From NCBI GenBank assembly GCA_963712965.1, contig CAVQJZ010000003.1:66878-130877 (forward strand): a stretch of DNA of 64,000 nucleotides, written 5' to 3'. Below the pieces are notes generated by a model. It had not been told where the DNA came from. It searched no databases and saw only the letters and a list, made by a program, of their open reading frames with translations. This document shows positions 1,204 through 60,234 of the stretch, piece after piece (within the stretch, counting starts at the first letter, position 1; every line of letters starts with the position of its first letter). Both the position numbers and the translations under genes were made by a program. This stretch comes from an uncultured Pseudomonadota bacterium. Its GTDB lineage: Bacteria > Pseudomonadota > Gammaproteobacteria > DASZBR01.

Positions 1204-1247
1204 TGAAGTAGTCTCTCCCGTTGGTCGTATAAAAGAAATGTGCTAGC

Positions 1248-2297: not shown

Positions 2298-2334
2298 TTT
2301 TCACCAGACCCCGCAATAAATGCGGGGTGACAAA
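2259..2334. repeat. Family A palindromic MITE-like element, copy 1 (two hairpins, ~13-bp terminal inverted repeats)
   Basis: Sequence gtcatgccgcacttgttgcggcatccgg...accagaccccgcaataaatgcggggtgacaa. Near-identical copies lie at 30213-30290 and 62700-62775, with a half copy at 54294-54324. Confidence 0.8.
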
Positions 2335-2338
2335 TTAA

Positions 2339-3454
2339 TTATGAATAAATACTACCACCAGTTAATGGTTCAGGCACGCCGGTTGTTGCAGGAATGCTCA
2401 GTGGTAATTTCAAAATACTCCGCACAGCAAGCCAGGCAAATATTTGTGCTTCAAAAGACGCATTGTTCCAGCTAGTTTCACTGAGTGTTAACCCCAGGCG
2501 GGTTTCTAATTCTTTTTTAATCACGGGATTATGCGAACCGCCGCCAAGCAATACCCAATGTTTTGCATGATAACTTTTGTCTACAAGATGGATGCTTTGT
2601 GCAATGCAATCTGCGGTGAATGCTTCTAGTATTGCGCAACCATCTTCAATTGATAAATTATTTATTTCAGCAATTAAATCAAAATCATTAATATCAAATG
2701 ATTTCGGTGGTTTTTTTTGTAAATAAACATAATAAGTTTGGCGTAGTTTCTCTAAAGCTGTTTTATTTATTGTGCCGCGTAATCCGTATTGCCCATCATA
2801 ATCCATCGTTTCTTTGTTCTGTGTTTTTTGTTTAACGAATCGATCAATTAATCCATTGCCAGGACCTGTATCAAATCCTAAAAGATCATTAAATGTGGGC
2901 CCTTTAATGAAAGATACATTGGCAATGCCGCCGCAATTAACTATCGCTAAAGGAATTTTGTGATCGCGAATCGCTAATGCTTGATGATACAGTGGCGCAA
3001 ATGGTGCGCCCTGCCCGCCTGCTGCAATGTCATTTTTGCGAAAATCAGTGACGGTGGTAATACCTAATTTTTTGGCTAACCATTGCCCATCGCCTATTTG
3101 CACTGTAATTTTTTCATGTGGTGCGTGATACAACGTTTGACCGTGATAGCCAATGCAATCAATTTGTTTTGGAGTTAGTTTTAATTGATGAATTAATTCA
3201 GCAATGGCTTGATAATGTAATTCAGTAGAACGTTGTATGACAGTATGCGCTGTTTGATCAAGGTTGCCTTTGGCGGCTTTTGTTATTTTTTCTAATTGTT
3301 TAAGTTCGTGATGAAATTCAGGCGAGTATTTTAGTGAGTAATAACCAATTTCTTGAATCTGATTTTTACCATCCGTTTTTAATGCGCTCACATCAATGCC
3401 ATCCATCGATGTGCCGCTCATGGTGCCAATAGAAATAAATTCTTTATTGTTCAT
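2339..3454 (-). CDS. anmK: Anhydro-N-acetylmuramic acid kinase
   Basis: MSGTSMDGIDVS N-terminal motif and full-length AnmK-like sequence. Confidence 0.9.
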   Translation of the reverse strand: MNNKEFISIGTMSGTSMDGIDVSALKTDGKNQIQEIGYYSLKYSPEFHHELKQLEKITKAAKGNLDQTAHTVIQRSTELHYQAIAELIHQLKLTPKQIDCIGYHGQTLYHAPHEKITVQIGDGQWLAKKLGITTVTDFRKNDIAAGGQGAPFAPLYHQALAIRDHKIPLAIVNCGGIANVSFIKGPTFNDLLGFDTGPGNGLIDRFVKQKTQNKETMDYDGQYGLRGTINKTALEKLRQTYYVYLQKKPPKSFDINDFDLIAEINNLSIEDGCAILEAFTADCIAQSIHLVDKSYHAKHWVLLGGGSHNPVIKKELETRLGLTLSETSWNNASFEAQIFAWLAVRSILKLPLSIPATTGVPEPLTGGSIYS

Positions 3455-4509
3455 TGGCGTACCTTTTTTAGTGCCAACGCTTTCTTCTCAATCCAAAACC
3501 ATGATGTCATGGCAAGCAATAATGTTATTGGCAGCGCACATAAAAATAACATAAAAGGATTAGATAAATGAAAAAAATGCATTAACGTTTGTTGTACGGG
3601 AAATGCATAAATATAAACGCCATAGGAAAAATCGCCATAACGCGTTAATCGATTAAAATGAATTTTTTGCTGATAGGTGAGCAATAAAATGCCATACGTA
3701 AGCGTTATATAGAACATGGTTGAATATAAAAAAGTATGTGAAAAAATAAAGCAACTTATCACAAGAGCAATAGCAGTAAATAAATTAAGTGTAATTACTT
3801 TGCGACAGAGATATGCAATAGCACCCAGGATAAAACATCCCTCCGGTATAATAGCTGGATATAACAAGGCTCGAAGTTTTGGATCAGCGCTGACAACTGT
3901 TGGCAAATAATGAAGTGTGAATATGAAAAATAACGTCGTTAATAAAATGCTGGCAAGCAATGATTTTTTTAATAAGCGAGTTATACCAAGAAATGCAACC
4001 ATCAGATACATGCTAAATTCTATGGGTAAAGTCCATAGCGATCCATTAACTGCTGTTGGATAGCTATTATGCAAAAACACGCCTGGCAGAGCATAAATAG
4101 GATATAAAATACTATTATAAAAAATATATGTATATGTTTCATGGTTTGTAAAATAAGCTTTCAGCGATAAACTGGTGACAATGGGGCCAACGATTAGCGC
4201 CGCAAATAATACAGCAATGATCAAAGCAGGAAAAATACGCAGAACACGTGCGCGTAAATAGACAAGTAGGTCATGACGTTGGCAATAACTTCGTGTAATT
4301 AAAAATCCACTGATAATAAAAAAACACGAAACAGCTAATCCTCCAAATGTGGTTAAGCCGTGGCTAAATACAGCCAAGGGTTCGTAGGTTTTCCCCGTAA
4401 GCGGATAGCTATGAGAAAAGATGACAGCTATGGCCGCCATTAAACGAATAAAATCAAAATTATTGTTTTTTGTTTCGGCGCATACGGCTAGCTGTTTGGA
4501 TTTGATCAT
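3451..4509 (-). CDS. Acyltransferase family 3 integral membrane protein (O-acyltransferase)
   Basis: Polytopic membrane protein with an FDFIRLMAAIAVIFSHSY-type acyltransferase-3 N-terminus. It has 4-nt overlaps with both neighbours. Confidence 0.75.
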   Translation of the reverse strand: MIKSKQLAVCAETKNNNFDFIRLMAAIAVIFSHSYPLTGKTYEPLAVFSHGLTTFGGLAVSCFFIISGFLITRSYCQRHDLLVYLRARVLRIFPALIIAVLFAALIVGPIVTSLSLKAYFTNHETYTYIFYNSILYPIYALPGVFLHNSYPTAVNGSLWTLPIEFSMYLMVAFLGITRLLKKSLLASILLTTLFFIFTLHYLPTVVSADPKLRALLYPAIIPEGCFILGAIAYLCRKVITLNLFTAIALVISCFIFSHTFLYSTMFYITLTYGILLLTYQQKIHFNRLTRYGDFSYGVYIYAFPVQQTLMHFFHLSNPFMLFLCALPITLLLAMTSWFWIEKKALALKKVRQ

Positions 4510-4958
4510 CTATCTTGCTCCGTTGCACAATTCACCAACCATTTTCGAATTAACTTTTCTTCTGCAGGTTTTAAATTTTTTAGCATATCAGCTTCAATAA
4601 CTTTAACGAGGCGTCGACATTGCTCTATTCTTTTTTTGCCCAGCGCCGTTACCGATACTTCCAATACGCGGCCATGTACTTTGTGCGGTGTTCGCGTCAC
4701 TAATTTAGCTTTCTCAAGATTGATAATAATTAAATTAACCGCTTGTGGTGAGAGCATGCAAATGCGCGCAATATCTGCAGCGTGAGAAGCTAAGCAAAGT
4801 CCAATGGCTTTTAATACGGCAAACTGTGGGTGTGTCATCGGTAGTTCACGTAACGCACGATCAATGCGTAGTCGAGTGATGTGCGCGGCTTGGCGTAAAA
4901 GATAGCCAATTTTTCCTTCAACACCACGATACCCTTCACCCGGTTGTGTTATTTTCAT
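4506..4958 (-). CDS. MarR family transcriptional regulator
   Basis: 150 aa with a winged-helix MarR pattern (LTHPQFAVLKAI..., ...RTPHKVHGRVLEVSVTALGKK). Confidence 0.85.
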   Translation of the reverse strand: MKITQPGEGYRGVEGKIGYLLRQAAHITRLRIDRALRELPMTHPQFAVLKAIGLCLASHAADIARICMLSPQAVNLIIINLEKAKLVTRTPHKVHGRVLEVSVTALGKKRIEQCRRLVKVIEADMLKNLKPAEEKLIRKWLVNCATEQDR

Positions 4959-4989
4959 AAAGTTCCTCGCCGACTATATTGACAATACA

Positions 4990-5004
4990 TTGATATTATA
5001 TCAA
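4990..5004. promoter_or_regulatory. Candidate MarR operator: perfect 7-1-7 palindrome TTGATATTATATCAA in the marR/MFS divergent intergenic region
   Basis: The palindrome is read directly. A TTGACA hexamer lies at 4979-4984. The site sits between the divergent marR (ends 4958) and the MFS gene ATG at 5014. Confidence 0.35.
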
Positions 5005-5013
5005 CATGTTGCC

Positions 5014-6204
5014 ATGAAAACTCAACAGCATTATTTAATCGCTATTATCGCTTTGCTCATTATTCCTATTTCAGGAATCAGCACTGATATTTATGTGCCT
5101 TCGTTGCCCGCGGTGGCCCACTTCTTTCACGCGGATAAAGCGCTAGTTCAATTAACCATTACCGCCTACATGATTGGTTTTGGTGCCATGCAATTATTTT
5201 CGGGAAGCTTATCAGATAGCATTGGGCGAAAGAAACCCTTTATTGTTTCGATGATCATCTATATTGCGGCAACGTTTTTAGTCACCCTATCGACAAGTAT
5301 TTACCAGTTATTGTTATTGCGCTTTATTCAAGGATTGATGGTCGGTTGTTTCAATGTTCCGATGCGTGCGTTAATCGCGGATTTATTTGAAGGTAAAGCA
5401 TTTTATAAAATGATGGGTTACATGACGATGGCTTGGTCCATTGGCCCGGTGATTGCGCCAGCGATAGGCGGTTATTTACAGCATTATTTTAATTGGCACG
5501 CACCTTTTTATTTTTTAATGGGTTATGGATTAATTTTTCTAGTGTTAAACATCTTGTTTGTGCCCGAAACATTAAAACAAACCAAACCTTTCCAAATTAC
5601 TAAAATATTTGAACGCTATAGCGAAGTGTTATTACATAAAGAATATATCGCTTGTTTGCTTTGCTCTGGCGCGCTGCTTTCCTTGCTTATTTTATTTAGC
5701 GTGGTGAATTCATTTTTTATACAAAGCGTATTGCATTACTCAGTGATTGATTTTGGACATATTGCATTGCTCATGGGGTTCGCTTGGTTTTTAGGTAACA
5801 CGACACATCGTTTAACGATTCATTATTCGATGCAAAATAAAGTAAAACTTTGTTTTTGGTTAATGTTGCTCGATGTTTTGTTGATGTTAGTGATGGCCTG
5901 TATTTGGCCTACGAGTATTTATAATATTGTGATCACGACATTTGTACTATTATATTTAGGCGGCATCGTATTTCCTAATTACTTTGCCAAGACAGTGGCT
6001 TTATTTCCACATATGGCTGGAATAGCCAGCGCATTATCTGGTGCTTTCAGTGTCTTAATTGCAAGCGTTATCTCAGCGCTTGCTGCTTTATTAAGATCCA
6101 ACACGCAAATTCCACTTGCACTTACCTATTTGGGGATTAGTATTGTATGTTTGCTAATCTTTTATTGGGAACAAATAGGAAAAACAAGTTCATGCAAAAC
6201 GTAA
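5014..6204 (+). CDS. MFS transporter, Bcr/CflA drug-resistance subfamily (copy 1)
   Basis: 12-TM-like profile with GRKKPFIVSMIIY and RFIQGL motifs. ATG at 5014 is preferred over the TTG at 4990 used by the track. Confidence 0.85.
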   Translation: MKTQQHYLIAIIALLIIPISGISTDIYVPSLPAVAHFFHADKALVQLTITAYMIGFGAMQLFSGSLSDSIGRKKPFIVSMIIYIAATFLVTLSTSIYQLLLLRFIQGLMVGCFNVPMRALIADLFEGKAFYKMMGYMTMAWSIGPVIAPAIGGYLQHYFNWHAPFYFLMGYGLIFLVLNILFVPETLKQTKPFQITKIFERYSEVLLHKEYIACLLCSGALLSLLILFSVVNSFFIQSVLHYSVIDFGHIALLMGFAWFLGNTTHRLTIHYSMQNKVKLCFWLMLLDVLLMLVMACIWPTSIYNIVITTFVLLYLGGIVFPNYFAKTVALFPHMAGIASALSGAFSVLIASVISALAALLRSNTQIPLALTYLGISIVCLLIFYWEQIGKTSSCKT

Positions 6205-7376
6205 AGCTTACGCCGTTTATATTTGGCATATTGGTATTGATGGGTTCTTTAGGTCAATTCGCTGCGGATATTTACGCCCCTTCTCTTCCAGCAATCAGCA
6301 AAGCATTTGCTGTGAGCAGTGCTGAAGTGCAAATTACCATGTCTGTTTTTATGTTGGCATTTGCTATTTCACAATTATTTTATGGTCCATGGTCTGATAA
6401 AGTCGGGCGACGCAAACCGGTATTAAATGGCATTTTGTTAGCGCTTGTAGGAAGTATTGCTTGTTTGTTGGCACCCAACATTTACGTATTAATGGCTGGG
6501 CGCTTTTTGCAAGGGTTAGGCGCTGGTGTCACATTGTGTTTAGGTCGCGTGATCCTGCGCGATATTATGTCTGGCACGCAGCTTGCTAAATTCGGTTCAT
6601 TTTTTAATATTATTTTTTCAACGGTCGTTGCTATTGCGCCAATGCTTGGCGGGTACTTGCAAGATTATTTTGATTGGCGCGCATCATTTATTTTTTTATT
6701 ACTCTATGGAATATGCCTATTTATTATTATTTGGCGTGCGTTTCCTGAAACACATTTTAATTTAAATCCCCTAGCCACTAAAGTTAGTGAAATGACTAAA
6801 AATTATCTTATCTTGTTAAAGTGTAGAACATTTATTGGTTATGTGATTTCTTCAAGCTGCGCCTATAGCGGTTTAGTTTGTTACATGACGGTGGCGAGTT
6901 TCTTATTGCAACGTGTGGTAGGTTTAACCGCATCGCAATTTGGTTGGTTATCGTTTGTCACCGCCGCCGCTGTTTCATCCACTGCCTTTATTAATAGTCG
7001 ATTGGTGGCGAAAAAAGGCATTAATTACATGGTTAATCTGGGCAATTTATTGATGTTGCTTTCGGGTATAACTATGTTGACGCTTGCCCTGTTTGGTTTA
7101 ATTAATGTATGGGTCATCATGATTCCGATGGTATTTTTTAGCATGGGTTGTGGTTGCACATTTGCTAATGCATTTGCCGGTGCTTTTCACCCTTTCCCGC
7201 ATATGGCAGGAAGTGCAGGCGCGTTATATGGATGCTTGCAAATTTTAGGCACATCATTAGCCATAGGTATTATCGCGCTTGCGCATACATCGAATCAGTT
7301 GCCATTGGCGATTATGTTATTTTCATTAGGATTAATTTCACGATTGTCTATGCGCTATTTGGTGGGGAATGCGTAA
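6192..7376 (+). CDS. MFS transporter, Bcr/CflA drug-resistance subfamily (copy 2)
   Basis: Paralogous to copy 1 (DIYAPSLPAI, GRRKPVL, GRFLQGLGAG). ATG at 6192 is the likely start. Confidence 0.85.
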   Translation: MQNVKLTPFIFGILVLMGSLGQFAADIYAPSLPAISKAFAVSSAEVQITMSVFMLAFAISQLFYGPWSDKVGRRKPVLNGILLALVGSIACLLAPNIYVLMAGRFLQGLGAGVTLCLGRVILRDIMSGTQLAKFGSFFNIIFSTVVAIAPMLGGYLQDYFDWRASFIFLLLYGICLFIIIWRAFPETHFNLNPLATKVSEMTKNYLILLKCRTFIGYVISSSCAYSGLVCYMTVASFLLQRVVGLTASQFGWLSFVTAAAVSSTAFINSRLVAKKGINYMVNLGNLLMLLSGITMLTLALFGLINVWVIMIPMVFFSMGCGCTFANAFAGAFHPFPHMAGSAGALYGCLQILGTSLAIGIIALAHTSNQLPLAIMLFSLGLISRLSMRYLVGNA

Positions 7377-8022
7377 TATGATGAAAACCATTTTATGTTA
7401 TGGCGATTCACATGTATGGGGTTTTATTCCAGGCAGTTTCGATGCCAATACAGGTTTGTCTAAGCGTCATCCGAGAAACAAACGCTGGACTGGTGTGCTG
7501 CAAGAATTACTTGGCAATAATTATTATGTTATTGAAGAAGGTATTAATGGTCGCACAACAGATTTAGATGAAATCACTCCCGGGCGACCTAATCGCAATG
7601 GCTTCGCGTTATTATCCGCGGCGTTTGATGCGCACTACCCCGTGGATCTTGTTATTTTTATGTTGGGCAGCAACGATACCAAAATACAATTTAATCGCGC
7701 AGTTAATGAAACAAAAGAAGCGATGAGAAAATTAATTCATTTTACTAAAACATCTGCATTGCATCAGCCAAAAATATTATTAATTGCCGCACCACCTATT
7801 ATCAAAATAGCAACACTACATCCTCAGTTAACAGATGAATCTGTTGAAAAATCAACAATGCTTGGCGCGCTTTATCAAACATTAGCGAAAGAAGAAAATT
7901 GTGCTTACTTAGATGCTTCTCAGATTGTGACAGCGAGCGAATTAGATGGTGTTCATTTTGATGAACAACAATGTACATTGTTAGCGCAAGCTGTGGCGGA
8001 AATGGTGAAGAAGATAATTTAG
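7369..8022 (+). CDS. SGNH/GDSL-family hydrolase (arylesterase/lipase-like)
   Basis: ILCYGDSHVWG (block I GDS), GINGRTT and GSND blocks, and a C-terminal DGVHF block. Confidence 0.8.
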   Translation: MRNMMKTILCYGDSHVWGFIPGSFDANTGLSKRHPRNKRWTGVLQELLGNNYYVIEEGINGRTTDLDEITPGRPNRNGFALLSAAFDAHYPVDLVIFMLGSNDTKIQFNRAVNETKEAMRKLIHFTKTSALHQPKILLIAAPPIIKIATLHPQLTDESVEKSTMLGALYQTLAKEENCAYLDASQIVTASELDGVHFDEQQCTLLAQAVAEMVKKII

Positions 8023-8045
8023 TCCGGGATTCATTTGAGACAATT

Positions 8046-8094
8046 GTCATTGCGAGACGACAAAGCCGAAGGCGAAGTCGGCGTGGCAATCCAG
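8046..8094. repeat. Family D GC-rich element (gtcattgcgag...ggcaatccag)
   Basis: Shares gtcattgcgag and caatccag blocks with the large palindrome at 44991-45096. It lies exactly at the 5' truncation point of the MFS pseudogene. Confidence 0.55.
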
Positions 8095-8095
8095 T

Positions 8096-8977
8096 ATCTT
8101 TTGTTTATGCGCTGCATCCTATCAATTTCTTCTTATTGGCCGTTTTCTCCAAGGTATAGGAATAGCCGCGTCCGCAATTCTCAGTTTTTTAATTATTGCT
8201 GATGCTTATTCCCTTAAGAAGCAACAATACTTTATGGCAATGTTGAATGGATCAATGAATGCTACTGCCGCTTTTGCTCCCGTCATTGGAAGTTATGTAA
8301 CACTGTATTTTCATTGGCAAGGTAATTTTATGGTGCTTTTATTTCTAGGGCTAACAGCGTTAGTAATGATGGCGTTTTTTATTCCCGCGCATAAACCACC
8401 TGAACATAAAGAAACTCTTTCGTTGCGCGGATATATTCCGCTATTTCAATCAAAACCTTTAATGCTTCTCATCACCTAGCTATACATGAAAGATTTGGGC
8501 GTGAGTCTCTCGTACTTTGATTATTATCAGGGTGTATTGGCTTTGGCATTTGCGCTTGGAAGTATAGGCTTTGGTTTGATCATCAAAAAATACGATCATC
8601 AGAAGAAAATGCTATATATTTCAAATCAAATTTTCGTTGCCGCTTTAATTGGCATTGCGTTAACGGCTTTTCTGGATAATTCTAATCCATTATTTATTAC
8701 TCTCGCATTGCTTCTTTTTGTGATAGGTCAGATTATCCCAAGCGCAATACTTTATCCCCTCTGTTTAAATTTTATGCCGCAAGCAAAAGCGCGAGTATCC
8801 GCCATTATTCAGGGCGCCCGTCTTATCTTCTCAGCGCTTAGTCTTCAGCTTGCCGGATATTATTATCAAGGAACGTTTCGAAATATTGGAATTATTCTCA
8901 TTGGCTTCATTTTCCTTGCGATTGTTACTTTGTTGTTGGTCATAAAAAATCGTGACCTCGTAAAGCAGATGAGTTAA
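8096..8977 (+). pseudogene. Decayed third Bcr/CflA MFS transporter: 5'-truncated with an internal stop and deletion
   Basis: The frame of ORF 8234-8479 extends upstream to ...LIGRFLQGIGIAASAIL, a motif that sits ~100 aa into the intact paralogs, with no N-terminal part. A TAG at 8477-8479 is followed by a second fragment (8486-8977), and a TM segment appears to be missing. Confidence 0.7.
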
Positions 8978-9008
8978 GTTACAACATAACCTATGAAGGA
9001 GACCGAGC

Positions 9009-30212: not shown

Positions 30213-30290
30213 GTCATGCCGCACTTGTTGCGGCATCCGGTAAAATTTCAAACATTTACCAGACCCCGCAATAAATGCGGGGTGACAAAA
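30213..30290. repeat. Family A MITE-like element, copy 2 (between the secG stop and tRNA-Leu)
   Basis: tgtcatgccgcacttgttgcggcatccgg...accagaccccgcaataaatgcggggtgacaaaa. The TIR pair is TTGTCAtgCCGCA / TTGTCAccCCGCA. Confidence 0.8.
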
Positions 30291-54233: not shown

Positions 54234-54324
54234 GTCATCCCGGCCAAGCGAGTGAAACGAGTGCGAGCCGGGATCTAGCAATTTAATCCTACTTGTCACC
54301 CCGCATTTATTGCGGGGTCTGGTA
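54234..54324. repeat. Family F hairpin (gtcatcccggc...gccgggatc) followed by an inverted half copy of family A
   Basis: gtcatcccggccaagcgagtgaaacgagtgcgagccgggatc, then ttgtcaccccgcatttattgcggggtctggta. Confidence 0.7.
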
Positions 54325-54669: not shown

Positions 54670-55866
54670 ATGTTAACTAAAGTAATATTTCCAAACTTGA
54701 AAAAAGGAGACAAACCTAGATGTCTTCTCGTAATCAGTCTTGGTCAAGATCTTCAATCGGGTGAAAAACTTAAAGTAACTATTGAAGGCATAAATAAACA
54801 ATTTTCAGAATGCACTGTTGTTATCGCTGATTCCCTGCAAAAACATAATCAAAGAATTTTAGGCCTAGATGAAAATGCAGCCACAGAAGCTGCTTTAGCA
54901 AGCGGCAAAAAATGGCTTGAAGAAAATAAAATCACTTTAGATGCTTTACAAATACCACATGCTATTCATCATTGGACTGAATACACATCAAGCGCAGACT
55001 TCCAAAATGCATTACGTAGCGTAAAAGATAGATATAACACGGATGTCGATTATAAAGCTGATCTGGATGACGCAATCGCCAGTTTTTATGCCAACTTCTC
55101 CTCCGCTCACAAAGACAAAAAAAGACTCCCAAGAAGAGAAGCAGAGGAATTTATACGAGAATATATAGAAGAAGAATATGCGGTAATGAAAGTATGGGAA
55201 AAAACTCTTGGCGACGTAAGACTCACATATCCAATAAGCCACAGCAAGATTGCCGCGTTAGTCTACGATGCTTTTAAAGCTCATCTTGCAGTAAAAAAAT
55301 CTAGTTTAATTTTTCAAGATATGCAATTTACAGGTGAAAAGAAAAATGGAGCTGCCAAAAATGGCGCAGCTAACGGAAAATCTATTCCTAGTGCAAAAAA
55401 AGAAAGCTCTGACGAACACTCATCTCGATCACGAAGCAATTCCAGTTCTTCAGGTGAAGATAACGACGAAGAGAAAGCTCTACGCAAAATAGCAAAAACC
55501 ACTTTCGAAATAATGAATGGTTTACCAAAAGAGCAGCAGCTTGACGATACTTTTACGATTGCCGCTAAGTCTGCGGCCGCTGCCATAAACGCAATCAAAA
55601 CAACAAATGCGGTGTCGATATCCAGACTTGGAATTCTCAAAGTATCGACAACACCACGAACCAGCCCTCCTCTGTCGCCACATTCTTCCCCTACAGAAGA
55701 AATACCTCCTCGTGTATCGCCGCCAAAACGTTCTTCAGCTCCTAGCGATGATAGAATCGAAGAAGGCGCGCAAGAAACAACAAGCAACGAACGGCCTAAA
55801 AGCTTAACTATTGCTGAATTGGAAGATTTTGCAAAGCATCATAATAACGGATTTACTAAAAAGTAA
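54670..55866 (+). CDS. Cyclodipeptide synthase (CDPS)-like protein, XYP-type, with a ~175-aa Ser/Pro-rich low-complexity C-terminal extension
   Basis: V-I-S23-L-G-Q26, Y165-x3-E169 and Y187-P188 correspond to AlbC G35-I-S37-A-G-N40, Y178/E182 and Y202/H203. Ser-to-Tyr spacing is 142 aa versus 141. Residues 221-398 are low complexity. Confidence 0.7.
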   Translation: MLTKVIFPNLKKGDKPRCLLVISLGQDLQSGEKLKVTIEGINKQFSECTVVIADSLQKHNQRILGLDENAATEAALASGKKWLEENKITLDALQIPHAIHHWTEYTSSADFQNALRSVKDRYNTDVDYKADLDDAIASFYANFSSAHKDKKRLPRREAEEFIREYIEEEYAVMKVWEKTLGDVRLTYPISHSKIAALVYDAFKAHLAVKKSSLIFQDMQFTGEKKNGAAKNGAANGKSIPSAKKESSDEHSSRSRSNSSSSGEDNDEEKALRKIAKTTFEIMNGLPKEQQLDDTFTIAAKSAAAAINAIKTTNAVSISRLGILKVSTTPRTSPPLSPHSSPTEEIPPRVSPPKRSSAPSDDRIEEGAQETTSNERPKSLTIAELEDFAKHHNNGFTKK

Positions 55867-55870
55867 TTTT

Positions 55871-56245
55871 CTAATTTCGAGTTAATTGGTTCAAATATTC
55901 TTCGACAGTTTCTTTAGCAAGTGGTTTCGTAATGTATCCATTCATTCCTGCTTCAGAAGCTTGTTTTTTATATTCATCACTGTTGTGAGCTGTTAAGCCA
56001 ACAATGCATATATGAACCTTTTCTTCCAATGCGCGAATTATTTTTGTCACAGCAAAGCCATTTGTATCAGGCAATCCAATATCCATGAAAATAATATCAT
56101 AGTGATTTGTCTTAAAAAGATTTAAAGCGGATTCACCATTACTTGCTGTATCTACATCACAACCTACTTCGATCAAAACCATTGACGCGATTTTTTGTGC
56201 GATCATATTATCTTCCACAAGCAATGCTCTAATTTTCTTATTCAT
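55871..56245 (-). CDS. Stand-alone response-regulator receiver (CheY-like) protein
   Basis: LLVEDN, FMDIGLPD (Asp55), GLTAH, ITKPL. There is no output domain. Confidence 0.9.
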   Translation of the reverse strand: MNKKIRALLVEDNMIAQKIASMVLIEVGCDVDTASNGESALNLFKTNHYDIIFMDIGLPDTNGFAVTKIIRALEEKVHICIVGLTAHNSDEYKKQASEAGMNGYITKPLAKETVEEYLNQLTRN

Positions 56246-56251
56246 AAAAAT

Positions 56252-57814
56252 TTACTCCTCCTTACTCGTCGTCTCATTTGATAATGGTAATTTAAACGGC
56301 AAAATGCAAACAAAAGCACTTCCTTTGCCAACCTCGCTATTCACTTCAATCTCGCCTTCCATTTCTTCGACGAATTGTTTAACTACTCGCAATCCCAAAC
56401 CTAAACCTTTGTGAACTCCTTGGTTAGCCGGTGTTCCTCGCGTAAATTTTTCATAAATATACTCTAATTTTTCTTTTGGAATACCGCTTCCTGTGTCTTT
56501 AACAACTATTTTAATGAGTACACTTTTACCCTTTTTTTGTATCTCATATAACTCAACTTTGATAGACCCTGCTTGAGTAAACTTGATTGCGTTGCTTAGC
56601 AAATTAATAAGTATACGCTGCAGACGATAGTCATCACCCAAAAGAATAGCAGATATACTCTCATCATACGCGGCAATTAATTCTAAGTTTTTGTTTTTGG
56701 CCGCAGGCATTTCCATTGCAACAACACTATCAACCAATTTCTTCAGTTCAAACTTTTTAACAATAACAGGTCTATTACCATGCTCGATATTAGAAAAATC
56801 AAGCACGCCATTGCAAAAGTCTAATAATTCCTTTGAAGCCATCGCCAAATAATTAAGTAACTCTTTTTTTTCTGAATCATTTTCTTTTTCAAATAGATTA
56901 TTGGCCAAATAATAAATGCCGGCGCATGGTGTTCTAATGTCATGTTCCATATTATGGATAAAATCCATTTTTACTTGGTTAGCGATTTTCAGTTGCTCCT
57001 CGTATTTTTTTCTTTCACTAATATCAATAGATATACCGAGCAGACCATTTACATGTCCTTGCTTATCCTTCAACGGAACTTTTCTCGTTAGATATACGGC
57101 GTGATTTCCTTTGGAATCAAAAGCATCTTCTTCTATAGAATGCTCAAAACCTAAAGCCATTATTCTTTCATCTTCGTTGGAAACCACATGAGCGACATCC
57201 CCATCATTTTTTCCAATTATTTCTTCAAGAGTTTTTCCGATAACATCCTGCCTTGAGCTGGCATTAATCAATTTTAATATATTGTAATTACACCCAAGAT
57301 AAACACCTGATCTGTTTTTCCAATAAACATTCCCTGGCATTAACGCAATAATTTCATGAAGATTTTCCAATTCATCTGACAACTTTAGACGTTCACTTCT
57401 TATCGATTTCAATTCCTGCTCGTAAAATTTTATTTTTTGCTGAGCTTGTTCTTGATCAATCTCTTCTTGGCAAATAGTGATTAGACCAGAAGAACTCGTT
57501 TGAATATCATTAAATGGAATTCGAGTAATCGTTGCATTAGAAACAATACCGTCATCACTTGAGCGACTTTCTCTCTCGGTTAATCTTTGTTGAGTTGATA
57601 TGGCTTCTTCATCAAACTTAGTAACATGATCAGCGATTGATTTTTTGACCAAATCGTAGATAGTCTTTCCAACGATTTCTTGGGGTGAGGATAAATTATA
57701 AGATTTTGCAGCACTATGACTACAGAATAGATAACGACCATCTTTATCTTTGACAGCAACATTCAGTGGCAAAACAGAAACCAGCTCTTTCAAAAAAACT
57801 AAATTCATATCCAT
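56252..57814 (-). CDS. Soluble PAS-PAS sensor histidine kinase (HisKA + HATPase_c, no TM, no receiver)
   Basis: Two PAS modules (second: LMPGNVYWKNRSGVYLGCN), H-box FIHNMEHDIRTP, N-box LLSNAIKF, G-boxes DTGSGI and GLGLGL. Confidence 0.9.
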   Translation of the reverse strand: MDMNLVFLKELVSVLPLNVAVKDKDGRYLFCSHSAAKSYNLSSPQEIVGKTIYDLVKKSIADHVTKFDEEAISTQQRLTERESRSSDDGIVSNATITRIPFNDIQTSSSGLITICQEEIDQEQAQQKIKFYEQELKSIRSERLKLSDELENLHEIIALMPGNVYWKNRSGVYLGCNYNILKLINASSRQDVIGKTLEEIIGKNDGDVAHVVSNEDERIMALGFEHSIEEDAFDSKGNHAVYLTRKVPLKDKQGHVNGLLGISIDISERKKYEEQLKIANQVKMDFIHNMEHDIRTPCAGIYYLANNLFEKENDSEKKELLNYLAMASKELLDFCNGVLDFSNIEHGNRPVIVKKFELKKLVDSVVAMEMPAAKNKNLELIAAYDESISAILLGDDYRLQRILINLLSNAIKFTQAGSIKVELYEIQKKGKSVLIKIVVKDTGSGIPKEKLEYIYEKFTRGTPANQGVHKGLGLGLRVVKQFVEEMEGEIEVNSEVGKGSAFVCILPFKLPLSNETTSKEE

Positions 57815-57850
57815 ACGAATACTTTACACCCTCACGTTTAACGCTGATCT

Positions 57851-57880
57851 TTGACACATGCTACAAAATACCTTTATATT
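57851..57880 (+). promoter_or_regulatory. Candidate sigma70 promoter for the Hpt gene
   Basis: TTGACA (57851-57856), an 18-nt spacer, then TATATT (57875-57880), ~58 nt upstream of the ATG at 57938. Confidence 0.35.
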
Positions 57881-57937
57881 GCAAGGACATAAATTCTAAC
57901 GTTTTTCCCTGACTAAGTCTTTATTATCGAGCCTAAA

Positions 57938-58216
57938 ATGACCGATTTTACTAAAGAAGCCCTTAAAATGTTCGCTCAAGTCATCCCAGAAGAGCTCGCT
58001 GCTCTGGAAAGTGCTCATCGAGCTCAAGACTGGAAAGTGATTTATGAATACATTCATAAAATGAAAAGCTCGGCGGTTTATTGCAAAGCCTTCAAATTGC
58101 GCGATGCATGCGCCGATTTAGAACAATATTTGAGATCATCGGAAAATATTGAACATCGTGAACAGCTTTATCAGGTAGTTTTAGACGAAATTGATGTGGT
58201 GAGAAAAGATCTCTGA
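57938..58216 (+). CDS. Stand-alone Hpt (histidine phosphotransfer) domain protein
   Basis: YIH40KMKSSAVYCKA fits the Hpt HxxKG/S motif. The 92-aa size is consistent with a four-helix bundle. Confidence 0.75.
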   Translation: MTDFTKEALKMFAQVIPEELAALESAHRAQDWKVIYEYIHKMKSSAVYCKAFKLRDACADLEQYLRSSENIEHREQLYQVVLDEIDVVRKDL

Positions 58217-58242
58217 TCATGAAAGACATAATATGTATTCAT

Positions 58243-58268
58243 AGGGGCAGACCTATGTGTCTGCCCTG
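58243..58268. repeat. Family E-variant hairpin (aggggcagacctatgtgtctgccc)
   Basis: The 18-mer aggggcagacctatgtgt is exactly inverted at 59661-59678. Confidence 0.7.
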
Positions 58269-58275
58269 TTTTTGC

Positions 58276-59544
58276 TCAAACCAAATTCTCACTAAAAATC
58301 TTTGCGATTAATTCTGATTTAGACACACATCCTAACTTATCTTTTGCGTTATCAACATAAAACTCCACGGTACGTGGTGATAAACCCATTTTTTTTGCTA
58401 CTAACTTAAGCGTCATACCACGAACTAAATAATGAATACATTCTGACTCACGCTTAGAAAGCCCTAAATACTTGTGCGCCTTATGCAACTCATTTATTTT
58501 CTCTTTTGGTAGTGTAATTGGCATATCTTCAATGGCAATTTCTTGAGCTTCAGCATTTAGATTAAAATGAGCAAAACCCTCGACATCTATCGCCATGTTT
58601 TCTAAATCTTCGCTGATTTTCTTAAGCTCAACAGCTGATTTTTTGGGTGATTTCAATCCTTTGAGCGCCAAACGAAAATCCTTCGCCAAATTAGACAGAA
58701 ATTCCGTTTTTGCACGATTGGCATTCTCCGCAATTTCTTTTGCCGCAAGAAGCTGCTCTTCCATTTTCTTTCTTTCAGTGATATCTATCGAAACACCCAA
58801 TAACCCAACTACTTTCCCCTGATCATCATGTAATGGAAGTTTCTTTGTGAAAAACAATGCCTTCTCATTTTTAGAATTAATACCCGGCTCTTCATAAATT
58901 AGTTCTTTGTCAGACGCCATAATTTTTTCATCATCAGCAGTCACTTGATCTGCAAGTTTTTTATTAAGGATGGCGTGTATTTTTTTGCCAATTAAATCTT
59001 TTGGTGCTTTAAGTCCAAGATTGTCTACATTATTTTGATTGCTACCAAGATACACACCTTCTCGATTTTTCCAGTACACATTCCCAGGCATCAAAACAAT
59101 TAATTCCTCTAGGTAATGCATCCTGTTAATAAACTCCGCTTTGGATTTATTTGATTCTTCTAATGCTTTTTCCATTTTTTTACGTTCGGTGATATCAAAA
59201 GAAACGCCTAACAAACCAACAACGCTATTATTTTCATTAACTAAAGGGATTTTTTTAGTTAAAAAAATCATGGGTTCTACACCAGAGGGCGCGTAGATTT
59301 CTTCAAGCATAACTTCTTGATTCGTTGACATGACTTTCTCATCAACCACATAAATTTTATCTGCATCATTCTTATCAACTAAATCGTACGTCTTTTTCCC
59401 TATAAACTCTCTCGAGGATTTTAATCCGAAAGTTTTCACAAGATTCTCATTACACCCCAAATACACCCCGTCTCTATTTTTCCAATAGACGTTACCTGGC
59501 ATAACAGCAATTAATTGTTCAAGAAGAACATTATTGAGATCCAT
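58276..59544 (-). CDS. PAS-PAS-LuxR/GerE HTH transcriptional regulator with a His-less HisKA-like remnant (no receiver domain)
   Basis: Two PAS modules paralogous to those of the kinase (MPGNVYWKNRDGVYLGCN; MPGNVYWKNREGVYLGSN). NRAKTEFLSNLAKDFRLAL sits in the H-box position. The C-terminal LSKRESECIHYLVRGMTLKLVAKKMGLSPRTVEFYVDNAKDKLG is a LuxR-type HTH. Confidence 0.85.
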   Translation of the reverse strand: MDLNNVLLEQLIAVMPGNVYWKNRDGVYLGCNENLVKTFGLKSSREFIGKKTYDLVDKNDADKIYVVDEKVMSTNQEVMLEEIYAPSGVEPMIFLTKKIPLVNENNSVVGLLGVSFDITERKKMEKALEESNKSKAEFINRMHYLEELIVLMPGNVYWKNREGVYLGSNQNNVDNLGLKAPKDLIGKKIHAILNKKLADQVTADDEKIMASDKELIYEEPGINSKNEKALFFTKKLPLHDDQGKVVGLLGVSIDITERKKMEEQLLAAKEIAENANRAKTEFLSNLAKDFRLALKGLKSPKKSAVELKKISEDLENMAIDVEGFAHFNLNAEAQEIAIEDMPITLPKEKINELHKAHKYLGLSKRESECIHYLVRGMTLKLVAKKMGLSPRTVEFYVDNAKDKLGCVSKSELIAKIFSENLV

Positions 59545-59622
59545 AAAATTTCCTGTAAAAATCTAGATGAGAGAAACAATAGGTGGACAAAGCAAGAGAC
59601 ATTACCGTATTTTTTACGTGAA

Positions 59623-59680
59623 GTCATGGCGCGCTTGTGTGAGCGCCCAAGACATGGCGGACACATAGGTCTGCCCCTAC
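59623..59680. repeat. Degenerate family A-like hairpin plus an inverted copy of the 18-mer
   Basis: gtcatggcgcgcttgtgtgagcgcc... then acacataggtctgcccct (59661-59678). Confidence 0.55.
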
Positions 59681-59702
59681 ACGAGAATGATATATTATCT
59701 AG

Positions 59703-60137
59703 TTAATTTTTGAGCAAAATTTTGCTTAATTGCTTACGGTTTTTGATTACATCTGCCAAAGTGTATTGCGCTAAAACTTTGATAAAACTATTTTTAGCTT
59801 CATCTAAAACATGCTTTAGTCGACATACGGGTGAAATCACACACTTCCCGTTTGCTTGATCAAAACATTCAACGATAAAAAAATTAGGCTCTATTTTTTG
59901 AACCAGGTCACCAAGGTTAATATGTTCTGGCTTTGCATTAAGCTGCAAGCCACCCTTTTTACCTCGAATCGTTTTAAGCACACCAAGCTTACTCAAGCGA
60001 TGGATAACTTTCATCAAGTGATTTTTAGAAATTTTGTAGCTGTCGGCAACTTCAGAGATGGTGCAGACCTCATCGTTACGCAGCGCAATATAAATCAGTG
60101 CGCGTAATGAATAATCTGTAAATTGTGTGAGCTGCAT
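59703..60137 (-). CDS. Rrf2 family transcriptional regulator (NsrR-like, three-Cys Fe-S cluster ligands)
   Basis: MQLTQFTDYSLRALIYIA is an Rrf2 N-terminus and wHTH. Cys91-x7-Cys99-x5-Cys105 is present. The start is set at 60137. Confidence 0.85.
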   Translation of the reverse strand: MQLTQFTDYSLRALIYIALRNDEVCTISEVADSYKISKNHLMKVIHRLSKLGVLKTIRGKKGGLQLNAKPEHINLGDLVQKIEPNFFIVECFDQANGKCVISPVCRLKHVLDEAKNSFIKVLAQYTLADVIKNRKQLSKILLKN

Positions 60138-60183
60138 AATGAAAACCTCATGGAAAGTATTGCATAGTGAAGCCACAATGTTT

Positions 60184-60206
60184 AACATTCATTTTAAATA
60201 CATGTT
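60184..60206. promoter_or_regulatory. NsrR-box-like 11-1-11 inverted repeat AACATTCATTT-T-AAATACATGTT
   Basis: The half-sites match each other at 9 of 11 positions and resemble my recollection of the gammaproteobacterial NsrR consensus (AAnATGnATTT-n-AAATnCATnTT). It lies between the divergent Rrf2 and globin genes. Confidence 0.5.
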
Positions 60207-60234
60207 ATGGCATTCTTACTATTAGGAGCAATTG

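Follow-up and report, generated by a model that had tools for sequence, protein, structure and literature searches.

A gene for a cyclodipeptide synthase (CDPS) and a gene for an ArcB-type PAS histidine kinase lie together in the window (the whole 64-kb stretch of DNA analysed), and this genetic linkage is established across deeply diverged Legionellales loci. Since the synthase-kinase pairing recurs in about 25 genomes, it probably represents an uncharacterised chemical signalling circuit. We favour, with moderate confidence, the reading that the locus is a cyclodipeptide-based signalling cassette whose sensor proteins may bind the product of the neighbouring synthase.

Genes and DNA elements of the locus

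An ORF check of positions 54670-59544 returned five ORFs at exactly the coordinates given beforehand. The five genes that an earlier note had listed (CDPS, soluble PAS-PAS kinase, receiver, Hpt and PAS-PAS-LuxR regulator) are real, as judged by ORF, domain and PDB matches. The features of the locus are:

54670..55866, + strand: predicted XYP-type cyclodipeptide synthase (CDPS), 398 aa; CDPS domain at aa 1-222
55871..56245, - strand: stand-alone receiver (REC), 124 aa; Pfam Response_reg, E=7e-26
56252..57814, - strand: soluble PAS-PAS-HisKA-HATPase histidine kinase (HK), ArcB-like, 520 aa; Pfam, NCBIfam
57851..57880, + strand: sigma-70-like promoter match TTGACA-18-TATATT, 11/12 matches; consensus match only
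57938..58216, + strand: stand-alone Hpt phosphotransfer protein, 92 aa; Pfam Hpt, E=1.4e-12; His40
58244..58267, + strand: terminator-like GC-rich hairpin with T-run; 9-bp stem, 6 GC pairs
58276..59544, - strand: PAS-PAS-LuxR/GerE HTH one-component regulator, 422 aa; Pfam PAS_4 x2 and GerE

The CDPS and REC genes are convergent, with stop codons 4 bp apart, and the terminator-like hairpin sits between the convergent Hpt and PAS-LuxR genes. The TTGACA-18-TATATT element is the best promoter match of the locus and lies upstream of Hpt in the divergent HK/Hpt intergenic region; the count of promoter-like sites in the region equalled the shuffle expectation. No operator-like inverted repeats common to the four intergenic regions were found, an Rfam search of the locus gave no match, and Pfam identified no tailoring enzyme in the CDPS locus of the window. 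Eukaryote-like proteins (a TPR-Ser/Thr kinase and F-box) are also encoded in the window, and a second PAS-LuxR paralogue, P0322, is present on the same contig.

From its sequence and AF2 model, the 398-aa protein is predicted to be an enzyme-competent XYP-type CDPS, with all the catalytic residues required for building a cyclodipeptide out of two aminoacyl-tRNAs intact. It scored below the cut-offs of Pfam PF16715 (17.4 bits, cut-off 27) and NCBIfam TIGR04539 (36.3 bits, cut-off 45); both models are weak for this divergent clade. The best PDB match by phmmer was the Fluoribacter dumoffii CDPS 5ocd (E=9e-20), and a custom CDPS profile-HMM scored the protein at E=5e-57. Residues 1-222 were modelled at pLDDT >90 (AF2) and superposed on 5ocd with a TM of 0.83, and the top Foldseek matches of the model were all CDPS structures (5ocd, Nbra, Rgry, AlbC, Rv2275 and YvmC), which have a class-I aaRS-like Rossmann fold. 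Ser37, Tyr178, Glu182, Tyr202 and Pro203 (AlbC numbering; Pro203 belongs to the XYP signature) served as the reference catalytic set, and S23, Y165, E169 and Y187-P188 (XYP signature) of the window protein were invariant in alignments. Substrate pockets were transferred from 5ocd, which is CDPS 33 with the motifs LPLDWVME/NDFRSRN. The P1 pocket reads L-V-V-A-W-V-M-(L/R) and the P2 pocket is ambiguous (…IHS); none of the specificity groups of Gondry et al. (Data Set 4) fits these motifs. Membership of the Legionellaceae cAA group, which has a known C-terminal domain, was considered and rejected. The C-terminal extension (aa 223-398) is mostly disordered, with S/P/E/K-rich stretches; AF2 places a helical hairpin of low confidence at 266-320 and one short helix at 381-391.

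The HK contains PAS, PAS_4, HisKA and HATPase_c domains by Pfam (HATPase E=6.5e-26), with His291 in the H-box; Pfam found no membrane domain in the HK or the PAS-LuxR protein. Its residues 117-510 match ArcB PRK11091 (E=2e-68, NCBIfam). Homologues number 678 at E<1e-40, mostly from uncultured Gammaproteobacteria, and related genomes carry several paralogues of this type of kinase each. REC has the acceptor Asp55 together with E11/D12, T85 and K107, and in NCBIfam it is closest to the receivers of TorS, BarA and ArcB, the kind found inside hybrid kinases; its counterparts in 12 related cassettes, stand-alone or fused, are 34-49% identical. Hpt matches the BarA Hpt module (NCBIfam). Cassette L068 encodes a REC-Hpt fusion whose Hpt half is 40% identical to it, and the Hpt of a hybrid kinase in L070 is a further match. 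All phosphorelay residues are present (HK His291, REC Asp55 with its pocket, Thr and Lys, and Hpt His40), and the three proteins are better described as one split, soluble, ArcB-like tripartite kinase. With three genes, no Pfam membrane domain and no ArcA-type partner, the relay works like a split hybrid kinase and is not an ArcB ortholog. No OmpR-type or terminal response regulator was found within the 64-kb window.

The kinase and the LuxR protein had been proposed to share paralogous PAS modules, and this was confirmed: an alignment of 308 aa shows 38% identity (E=4e-61) and takes in the motifs originally quoted. The similarity extends into the DHp helix, where Lys288 of the LuxR protein replaces the phospho-accepting His. 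An AF2 model of the LuxR protein (pLDDT 80.5) places PAS domains at 4-117 and 155-254, helices at 256-297 and 304-325, and the HTH at 347-418. The protein is a paralogue of the HK sensor module that has retained a DHp-like hairpin from a kinase ancestor. Its best solved sequence relatives are the VqmA structures 6ide, 6ugl and 6kju (E about 2.5e-7), at 17-18% identity and with a PAS-only similarity of about 10 bits; the protein is a distant VqmA relative, not an orthologue.

In VqmA, the Vibrio receptor of the pyrazinol autoinducer DPO, F99 and K101 stack on the ligand and hydrogen-bond its carbonyl. When the VqmA DPO-contact residues F67, F99 and K101 were compared, the 'FFTKK' of the second PAS domain fell under F99/K101, with F232/K234 aligned, and His190 aligned with F67. 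In a set of 38 related PAS domains, the three contact positions carry, in turn, Leu (30/38), a variable residue and Tyr (20/38), and the residue that follows is an invariant Lys. The HK PAS domains, like ArcB, have Arg at the VqmA Lys position in a by-eye alignment. The residues aligned with VqmA ligand contacts are a family-wide feature, which counts against the ligand reading. A Foldseek search with the PAS-LuxR model gave generic tandem-PAS matches only, which name no ligand.

Linkage of CDPS and PAS kinase genes in related genomes

A cassette was defined as a CDPS gene and an ArcB-type PAS kinase gene no more than about 1.5 kb apart, with an adjacent receiver-containing protein. The window holds such a cassette, with CDPS, REC and HK contiguous, and the same triad was found in loci L004, L041, L048, L065, L067, L068, L069, L071 and L074. 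With the CDPS domain as query, a word-indexed search of proteins recovered nothing but the protein itself, which made an exhaustive search necessary; an alignment of 14 sequences proved too diverse for scanning loci. In a forward test, genomes were scanned with a CDPS alignment and the neighbours were inspected for the PAS-kinase family. A PAS kinase adjoined the CDPS in 11/12 Legionellales-type loci and in 0/26 Photorhabdus, Pseudomonas, Vibrio, actinomycete and alphaproteobacterial loci; linked genes were at most 1.3 kb apart, usually <100 bp and co-directional. Metagenome contigs supplied four more pairings. In a reverse test, kinase or LuxR homologues led to eight loci chosen regardless of CDPS, and a CDPS or CDPS-like gene was adjacent in six of them (E-values 2e-30 for L065, 1e-61 for L068, 6e-59 for L069, 4e-12 for L067 and 4e-10 for L071; the match in L066 was weak, E=2e-6). 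In L070, the CDPS position is occupied by a two-module NRPS (A-PCP-C-A-PCP-TE), a non-homologous dipeptide/diketopiperazine synthetase.

The pairing was found in about 25 independent loci of distantly related Legionella-like genomes, a recurrence that makes the adjacency more than chance. It is kept in convergent, divergent and co-directional layouts, and between kinase-linked CDPSs the median divergence is 69% of aligned positions. Flanking genes also differ (ruvABC/aspS in L041, a Rep3/ParAB plasmid in L069), and the L074 cassette lies on the 33-kb renieramycin plasmid of the sponge symbiont Ca. Endohaliclona. One locus, L042, has the order CDPS-HK-CDPS-HK, and two MAGs contain two cassettes each (L002/L017 and L003/L031); synthase and sensor duplicate together. 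A mirror-tree/Mantel comparison of the CDPS and kinase distance matrices gave r=0.47 (p=2e-4), which fell to about 0 without a few close pairs, and co-evolution cannot be argued from a signal that those pairs produce entirely. Which way synthase and sensor are coupled cannot be read from co-location alone.

The earlier note would have been refuted if CDPS and signalling genes were never found together in other genomes. This is clearly not so, CDPS and PAS kinase being neighbours in deeply diverged Legionellales loci that differ in orientation and chromosomal context. Of the five-gene neighbourhood that had been put forward for conservation, the CDPS-kinase co-location is upheld (11/12; 6/8) and the five-gene set as a unit is not. 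The conserved core is CDPS, PAS kinase and receiver. The accessory genes are Hpt, seen in some cassettes as a fusion to REC or within hybrid kinases, and PAS-LuxR, seen in only two other contexts, with a LuxR-type HTH present in L071/P0279. Most cassettes encode a bare receiver or an LqsR-type response regulator only, and no DNA-binding protein. In cultured Legionella micdadei, an unrelated 428-aa protein that is not a CDPS is encoded between a PQ-loop gene and the kinase; it was tried as a cAA-type CDPS and rejected, having no match with a profile that picks up the enzymes CDPS 28 and CDPS 29, and no Pfam or PDB match.

Most related cassettes also encode a PQ-loop (SemiSWEET-like) 3-TM membrane protein, as a separate gene or fused to the kinase; no homologue of it was found anywhere in the 64-kb window. 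The response regulator of type-A cassettes matches PDB entry 6sy9, which we take to be an LqsR-type structure, over its full length (E=7e-53), and full-length homologues of 6sy9 are present in L002, L003, L017, L018, L020 and L025. The analogy with the lqs locus is stronger than first claimed, in that the response regulator of related cassettes is a full-length homologue of the only solved LqsR-type structure. The 'lqsR homologue' of pLELO (named in PMC8023197) matches the same entry. LqsR-like regulators on Legionella plasmids (pLELO, L. lytica) were examined as CDPS-linked candidates and rejected, their neighbours being HAMP kinases and a binding protein. Homologues of LqsR, LqsA and LqsS were absent from the 64-kb window. 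The LqsR family switches between quorum-sensing systems (PMC10653808).

A candidate signalling circuit and its alternatives

In a cyclodipeptide signalling cassette, the cyclodipeptide, or a compound formed from it spontaneously or enzymatically, would be the ligand of both paralogous cytoplasmic PAS modules. In a two-component branch, ligand occupancy would set autophosphorylation of HK His291, and the phosphoryl group could pass to REC Asp55, then to Hpt His40 and finally to a response regulator whose gene lies elsewhere. For the sister cassettes, this terminal regulator would be an LqsR-family protein. In a one-component branch, the PAS-PAS-LuxR protein would bind the same ligand and act directly on DNA, like VqmA with DPO. 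The PQ-loop/SemiSWEET-like protein of relatives probably transports the molecule or displays it at the membrane; where this protein forms the N-terminus of the kinase, dimerisation of the kinase would give a full 6-TM unit. As the window has no PQ-loop protein, its signal would have to act intracellularly or diffuse across the membrane.

It is possible, though in our judgement doubtful, that the relay and the LuxR protein instead sense redox, oxygen or a host cue and merely switch the CDPS gene, the target of the cyclodipeptide lying elsewhere, in the host, in competitors or in metal binding. Among named proteins, the PAS and kinase regions match ArcB best, and the ArcB-type PAS modules keep a near-invariant Cys (36/38 domains) at the position of the redox-active Cys180 of ArcB, so that they could sense redox state instead of a cyclodipeptide. 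However, the second PAS domain of the window LuxR protein has Ser in its place, and the window kinase is soluble, unlike ArcB, which needs membrane anchoring to meet quinones. Regulators beside biosynthetic genes are common, and a LuxR-type HTH is encoded both here and in L071/P0279, but most cassettes lack any DNA-binding protein. Kinase-fused PQ-loop modules suggest that the sensor itself handles a small molecule, and the duplication of synthase and sensor as pairs likewise argues against simple pathway regulation. A target in the host would agree with the host manipulation proposed for CDPSs of intracellular bacteria by Aravind et al. (PMC2922099).

Use of the cyclodipeptide as a metabolic messenger is improbable and is really a sub-case of the signalling reading, with the same ligand-receptor pair in another compartment. 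The molecule would stay in the cell and its level would report the charged-tRNA pool (amino-acid sufficiency) to the kinase, tying translation capacity to a Legionella-like life-cycle switch. CDPSs use aminoacyl-tRNAs as substrates (PMC5816076), and the HK and LuxR protein have no Pfam membrane domain and the locus no PQ-loop homologue or transporter gene; the PQ-loop protein of most related cassettes, however, points to cross-membrane traffic.

That the tailed CDPS is a Dot/Icm substrate using host aminoacyl-tRNAs in the host cytosol, with the neighbouring relay only co-regulating it with virulence, is very unlikely. Long disordered C-terminal extensions recur in REC-type cassettes (348-579 aa), and the last 20 residues of the window protein (…LTIAELEDFAKHHNNGFTKK), acidic at -13/-14/-16 and with Phe at -4, resemble Dot/Icm signals. 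The TPR-Ser/Thr kinase and F-box proteins of the window and the IcmW near cassette L068 are also consistent with secretion. Type-A CDPSs are nevertheless short and tail-less yet kinase-linked, and the tails are not alignable between loci.

We regard as highly improbable a joint reading in which private, mutually orthogonal cyclodipeptide 'languages' are combined with readback of a host-injected tailed CDPS. Each CDPS (or small NRPS) in Legionellales would have its own PAS kinase or PQ-loop-kinase transceptor. Dot/Icm would inject the tailed CDPS, the signal would be made from host aminoacyl-tRNAs, and the bacterial PAS kinase and PAS-LuxR protein would read it as meaning the inside of a translationally active host cell. 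If true, CDPS products would thereby acquire their first cognate receptors.

A functionally meaningless adjacency, due to chance or hitch-hiking, for which the abundance of two-component genes and the several paralogues of the window-type kinase in related genomes might speak, is effectively refuted by the neighbourhood data (11/12 versus 0/26 forward, 6-7/8 reverse, and varied orientations, replicons and flanks).

Relation to known systems and significance

Like Lqs (LqsA-LqsR-LqsS/LqsT) and Vibrio CqsA/CqsS, the cassette clusters a synthase with a sensor kinase and a response regulator, and with Lqs it shares Legionellales as its taxonomic home. The window synthase is a tRNA-dependent CDPS whereas theirs is a PLP-dependent acyl-CoA transferase, and the kinases are soluble or PQ-loop-anchored ArcB-type PAS proteins in place of the 6-TM LqsS/CqsS. 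Diketopiperazine cross-talk with LuxR-type receptors had been cited beforehand; for the PAS-LuxR protein, VqmA-DPO of Vibrio cholerae and phage VP882, where a cytoplasmic ligand-binding PAS domain is joined to a LuxR-type HTH without a receiver, is a nearer precedent than AHL-type LuxR cross-talk. DPO is a small six-membered N-heterocycle that derives from amino acids and carries a carbonyl, which brings it chemically near to a diketopiperazine. VqmA homologues are reported from Vibrio and a single phage only. The window protein differs from VqmA in its two PAS domains and its DHp-like hairpin; DPO depends on Tdh instead of a dedicated synthase encoded next door, and has no known kinase branch. 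The PAS-HisKA-HATPase, receiver and Hpt modules are all best matched to ArcB, BarA and TorS, and related loci hold true single-chain PAS-PAS-HK-REC-Hpt hybrids like ArcB, but in the window the modules form three genes with no ArcA-type partner and a linked biosynthetic enzyme. The PAS4-LuxR 'solos' of Photorhabdus and Xenorhabdus also join an N-terminal PAS to a C-terminal LuxR HTH, lack an AHL-binding domain and probably respond to small molecules other than AHLs; no PAS4-LuxR-type gene was found within 10 kb of the Photorhabdus CDPS loci L009-L015.

Known CDPS clusters (albonoursin AlbC, pulcherrimin YvmC-CypX and mycocyclosin Rv2275-CYP121) share the enzyme family and fold, but surround it with tailoring oxidases, P450s and methyltransferases that lead to antibiotics or chelators, whereas the window has signal-transduction proteins only. 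PAS domains as frequent CDPS neighbours, with quorum sensing suggested, were mentioned in one sentence without further analysis by Skinnider et al. 2018 (PMC5767969). The association had been noted already, whereas the earlier note was not aware of any described circuit in which PAS sensors read a CDPS product.

CDPS genes were noticed in 2010 in Legionella, Coxiella-like organisms and Rickettsiella, and the role of their product has been a question since. Diketopiperazines have long been proposed as quorum-sensing molecules, and we know of no dedicated receptor for them. A synthase consistently wired to one sensor family offers a concrete ligand-receptor candidate for in vitro work. If the signalling reading is true, bacterial signalling would gain a new chemical class and, with soluble or SemiSWEET-anchored ArcB-type PAS kinases and a VqmA-like branch, a new receptor architecture, and the LqsR family would have a wider role. 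Such a circuit would also offer a way into life-cycle control for a large, mostly uncultured host-associated group, which includes a sponge symbiont with the cassette on its drug-producing plasmid.

The synthase and its adjoining phosphorelay

An open reading frame check of the window recovered all five genes exactly where the earlier note had placed them.

Genes of the locus at 54670-59544
54670-55866, + strand: cyclodipeptide synthase (CDPS), 398 aa
Receiver: 124 aa, acceptor Asp55
Kinase: 520 aa, PAS-PAS-HisKA-HATPase, His291
Hpt protein: 92 aa, His40
PAS-LuxR protein: 422 aa, PAS-PAS-GerE/LuxR

The 398-aa protein is a true cyclodipeptide synthase, despite scoring below the cut-offs of the curated models (Pfam, 17.4 bits against 27; TIGR04539, 36.3 against 45). 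A phmmer search of the PDB returned the Fluoribacter dumoffii CDPS (5ocd) as top match (E=9e-20), followed by the CDPSs of Nocardia brasiliensis and Rickettsiella grylli. Searched exhaustively, a set of 1.8 billion representatives yielded 787 homologues, the nearest just 38% identical. Residues Ser23, Tyr165, Glu169 and Tyr187-Pro188 are invariant across the alignments and correspond to S37, Y178, E182 and Y202-P203 of AlbC, the XYP signature. The AlphaFold model has a pLDDT above 90 over residues 1-222 and a target-normalised TM of 0.83 on 5ocd; judged from sequence and model, the enzyme is predicted to be competent. The C-terminal extension (residues 223-398) is predicted to be disordered and S/P/E/K-rich at 228-265 and 321-380, with a low-confidence helical hairpin at 266-320 and a short helix at 381-391. 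The protein falls outside the Legionellaceae cAA group, which has a known C-terminal domain.

The pockets of 5ocd (LPLDWVME/NDFRSRN) agree with those of CDPS 33, the cGG synthase in Gondry et al., and 5ocd was therefore identified with that enzyme. Carried over to the window CDPS, P1 reads L-V-V-A-W-V-M-(L/R) and P2 is ambiguous; neither matches a specificity group listed by Gondry et al. The A67-W119 pair resembles that of Ala-accepting enzymes.

The best named matches of the receiver, kinase and Hpt are modules of ArcB, BarA and TorS, and the three proteins are one tripartite hybrid kinase divided over three genes. Pfam detected no membrane domain in the 520-aa kinase, and the His-Asp-His relay is intact. 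Two kinase homologues (P0211 and P0238) carry fused SAM-methyltransferase domains, which may be a tailoring activity attached to the sensor.

The CDPS and receiver genes converge at 55863-55874 with stop codons 4 bp apart, and overlap by 21 bp in the related locus L004 (1422-1442) and by 49 bp in L041 (10942-10990). Their transcripts must overlap, leaving room for antisense effects or transcriptional interference between the making of the signal and its sensing.

Linkage of synthase and sensor in other genomes

The CDPS alignment was scanned against one genome per GTDB species, giving 38 loci, and neighbours were detected by tblastn with the window's proteins, a search that sees only this PAS family. 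A kinase of the same PAS type lay beside the CDPS in 11 of the 12 loci from uncultured Gammaproteobacteria and Coxiellaceae MAGs, usually transcribed in the same direction and under 100 bp downstream. By the same search, none of the 26 loci from Photorhabdus, Pseudomonas, Vibrio, actinomycetes, Micavibrio and other alphaproteobacteria had this kinase type within 10 kb. A metagenome scan added loci L041, L042, L044 and L048; most of the related loci come from MAGs or metagenome contigs, and they are not phylogenetically independent. A neighbour-joining tree gathers the kinase-linked CDPSs in a deep group with long branches; the unlinked enterobacterial and pseudomonad clade is nested within it, and the alphaproteobacterial and actinobacterial enzymes fall outside.

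The search was also run in reverse. For the window kinase, 678 homologues were recovered at E<1e-40, chiefly in uncultured Gammaproteobacteria; among the matches listed, two are from cultured Legionella (L. nautarum and L. micdadei). Kinase homologues chosen by rank and contig size only, together with PAS-LuxR homologues, gave eight loci with DNA, which were probed with a CDPS profile HMM. A plasmid search further located a CDPS and kinase on a 33-kb renieramycin-biosynthesis plasmid of the sponge symbiont Ca. Endohaliclona renieramycinifaciens (Legionellales), a genome-reduced organism.

Kinase neighbours in the reverse test and on the symbiont plasmid
L065: CDPS, E=2e-30
L068 and L069: CDPS, tblastn E=1e-61 and 6e-59
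L067: CDPS-like, E=4e-12
L071: CDPS-like, E=4e-10
L066: CDPS-like, E=2e-6 (weak)
L070, 1026-9586: two-module NRPS (A-PCP-C-A-PCP-TE, 1928 aa), divergent from a single-chain PAS-PAS-HK-REC-Hpt kinase
L072 (Legionella micdadei): unrelated 428-aa protein
L074 (plasmid MK748464), record 2693-5333: HTH protein, CDPS, PQ-loop-PAS-PAS kinase, unannotated receiver ORF

On the symbiont plasmid the CDPS is labelled 'hypothetical' in the record and the kinase has an N-terminal PQ-loop. The contexts of homologues P0176 and P0279 hold unannotated ORFs of fitting size at the CDPS position, which are candidate CDPSs. The NRPS of L070 sits where other cassettes have a CDPS, beside a kinase of the same family; although non-homologous to CDPSs, it would likewise release a dipeptide or diketopiperazine. 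Eukaryote-like protein kinases are encoded near it. In L. micdadei, a cultured human pathogen, the order at 6392-10158 is PQ-loop protein, 428-aa protein, PAS kinase and receiver, and a LetS-like hybrid kinase adjoins. The 428-aa protein is not a CDPS and has no detectable homology; it may be a third type of signal-producing enzyme.

The five-gene neighbourhood was conserved in part: CDPS, kinase and receiver form the core, and Hpt and PAS-LuxR are accessory. In type A cassettes a PQ-loop/SemiSWEET-like 3-TM protein precedes the CDPS (at times two), a kinase with one to three PAS domains and a response regulator of 335-366 aa. This regulator matches PDB entry 6sy9 over its full length (E=7e-53), an entry which we take to be L. 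pneumophila LqsR. Indirect support comes from the plasmid pLELO, since its regulator, an lqsR homologue (PMC8023197), also matches 6sy9. Type B (the window, L004, L041, L048, L005, L065, L067 and L071) combines a CDPS bearing a long C-terminal extension with a stand-alone receiver and a PAS-PAS kinase. Forms intermediate between these types have a kinase with the PQ-loop as an N-terminal fusion (L068, L069, L074 and many homologues in the databases), a REC-Hpt fusion (L068; REC 49% and Hpt 40% identical to the window's) or all modules in one hybrid kinase (L070). A PAS-LuxR gene adjoins the kinase again in L071, whose gene order is that of the window without Hpt, and in the context of P0279. 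LqsR-family regulators on pLELO (L073, L. pneumophila) and L. lytica plasmid 2 (L075) lie next to a HAMP-domain kinase, which is a further sensor partner of this family; on pLELO, genes for an ABC substrate-binding protein and an alpha/beta hydrolase adjoin the regulator as well.

Several features point to movement of the cassette as one unit. Its flanks vary (ettA/nsrR in the window, ruvABC/aspS in L041, plasmid genes in L069 and L074), its orientation is convergent, divergent or co-directional by locus, and the median difference between linked CDPSs is 69% of positions. In L042 the synthase has been duplicated along with its sensor (CDPS-kinase-CDPS-kinase, 1061-4718), and two MAGs each hold two separate cassettes (L002/L017 and L003/L031). 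Two adjacent CDPS copies precede one kinase in L002 and L003, with two PQ-loop copies also in L002.

In the window, GC content is 0.35-0.36 across 56001-60000 (kinase, Hpt and LuxR genes) against about 0.39-0.41 elsewhere, compatible with lateral transfer having placed the cassette between ettA and nsrR. Overall GC is about 0.39, and the window's proteins are singletons in 90% clusters. The following features surround the cassette.

Other features of the window
2306-2330, 30261-30285, 54296-54320 and 62748-62772: four identical 25-nt perfect hairpins, TCACCCCGCATTTATTGCGGGGTCT (0 expected by chance)
31984-34572, - strand: 862-aa TPR-repeat protein with Ser/Thr/Tyr kinase domain
42091-44346, + strand: 751-aa F-box/HEAT-repeat protein
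59703-61567: Rrf2/NsrR-type regulator divergent from truncated (bacterial-like) globin and ferredoxin-FAD-NAD reductase

The hairpin, with one copy in the gap from ettA to the CDPS gene, resembles an intergenic element of REP/MITE-like type; similar 'HPAFIAGS'-type translations occur at the ends of some related MAG contigs. Both eukaryote-like proteins are of kinds characteristic of the effector repertoires of Legionella-like bacteria, which suggests that the organism is host-associated. The genes directly past PAS-LuxR are a probable nitric-oxide response module, whose position beside the cassette is not conserved among the other loci.

The PAS modules and their candidate ligand

The proposal that the kinase and LuxR protein share paralogous PAS modules was borne out by 38% identity over 308 residues (E=4e-61). 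The alignment extends into the DHp helix, where Lys288 of the LuxR protein replaces the phospho-accepting His. Its model (pLDDT 80.5) comprises PAS domains at 4-117 and 155-254, a DHp-like helical hairpin at 256-325 and an HTH at 347-418 preceded by a disordered linker. The family looks to have derived from kinases by a swap of the ATPase domain, because homologue P0346 retains PAS-HisKA with an intact H-box ('AHDFKTP') and has a LuxR HTH where the ATPase domain would be; P0346 looks like a transitional form between the kinases and the PAS-LuxR regulators.

Among solved structures, those closest in sequence to the PAS-LuxR protein are the VqmA entries 6ide, 6ugl, 6kju and 7dwm (E ~2.5e-7), the receptor of DPO (PMC8284805), and the Foldseek descriptions agree. 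In the HMMER alignment 'FFTKK' lies under VqmA F99 and K101, which stack on DPO and hydrogen-bond to its carbonyl. The resemblance is a lead rather than proof, since the PAS portion contributes only about 10 bits and the aligned residues are family-wide. The signature common to 38 PAS domains of linked kinases is PG(N/H)xYWK(D/N)…G(Y/F)LGCN…GK…(Y/F)L(S/T)xKxPL…GxxGxxxDIT, with one variable position beside the invariant Lys.

Readings of the locus

A CDPS, a relay, a PAS-HTH paralogue and a deeply conserved synthase-sensor linkage are established, and the locus would belong among the synthase-sensor signalling cassettes, a known kind. PAS domains have been described as frequent CDPS neighbours, with quorum sensing suggested (Skinnider et al. 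2018, PMC5767969). The presence of CDPSs in intracellular bacteria has been reported, with host manipulation proposed as their role (Aravind et al. 2010, PMC2922099). In the literature searched, in which subscription journals were thinly covered, nothing was found on the kinase family, the split relay, the PQ-loop and LqsR-family partners, the NRPS substitution or the VqmA relationship.

The reading given somewhat better than even chances is that the CDPS product is read by the PAS modules of both the relay and the VqmA-like regulator. The ligand would be a cyclodipeptide or a derivative, and would control the phosphorelay, ending at a regulator outside the window that is LqsR-type in sister cassettes; in a parallel branch it would control the one-component PAS-LuxR protein. 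PQ-loop proteins, where present, may carry or present the molecule at the membrane, and two kinase subunits with fused PQ-loops would, as a dimer, make up a full 6-TM SemiSWEET-like unit.

Co-location does not give the direction of the coupling, and the relay might sense something else and merely regulate the CDPS, a reading considered unlikely but the strongest of the alternatives. Its redox-sensing version is kept alive by a PAS Cys retained in 36 of the 38 domains (Ser in the second PAS of the window LuxR protein), at what we take to be the position of redox-active Cys180 of ArcB. It is rather doubtful that the same ligand-receptor pair is a purely intracellular gauge of charged tRNA. A CDPS acting as a secreted effector is very improbable. 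Chance adjacency is scarcely credible.

With cyclodipeptide signalling as the favoured reading, an old puzzle, the purpose of CDPS products in Legionella-like bacteria, becomes open to direct binding and phosphorylation experiments.
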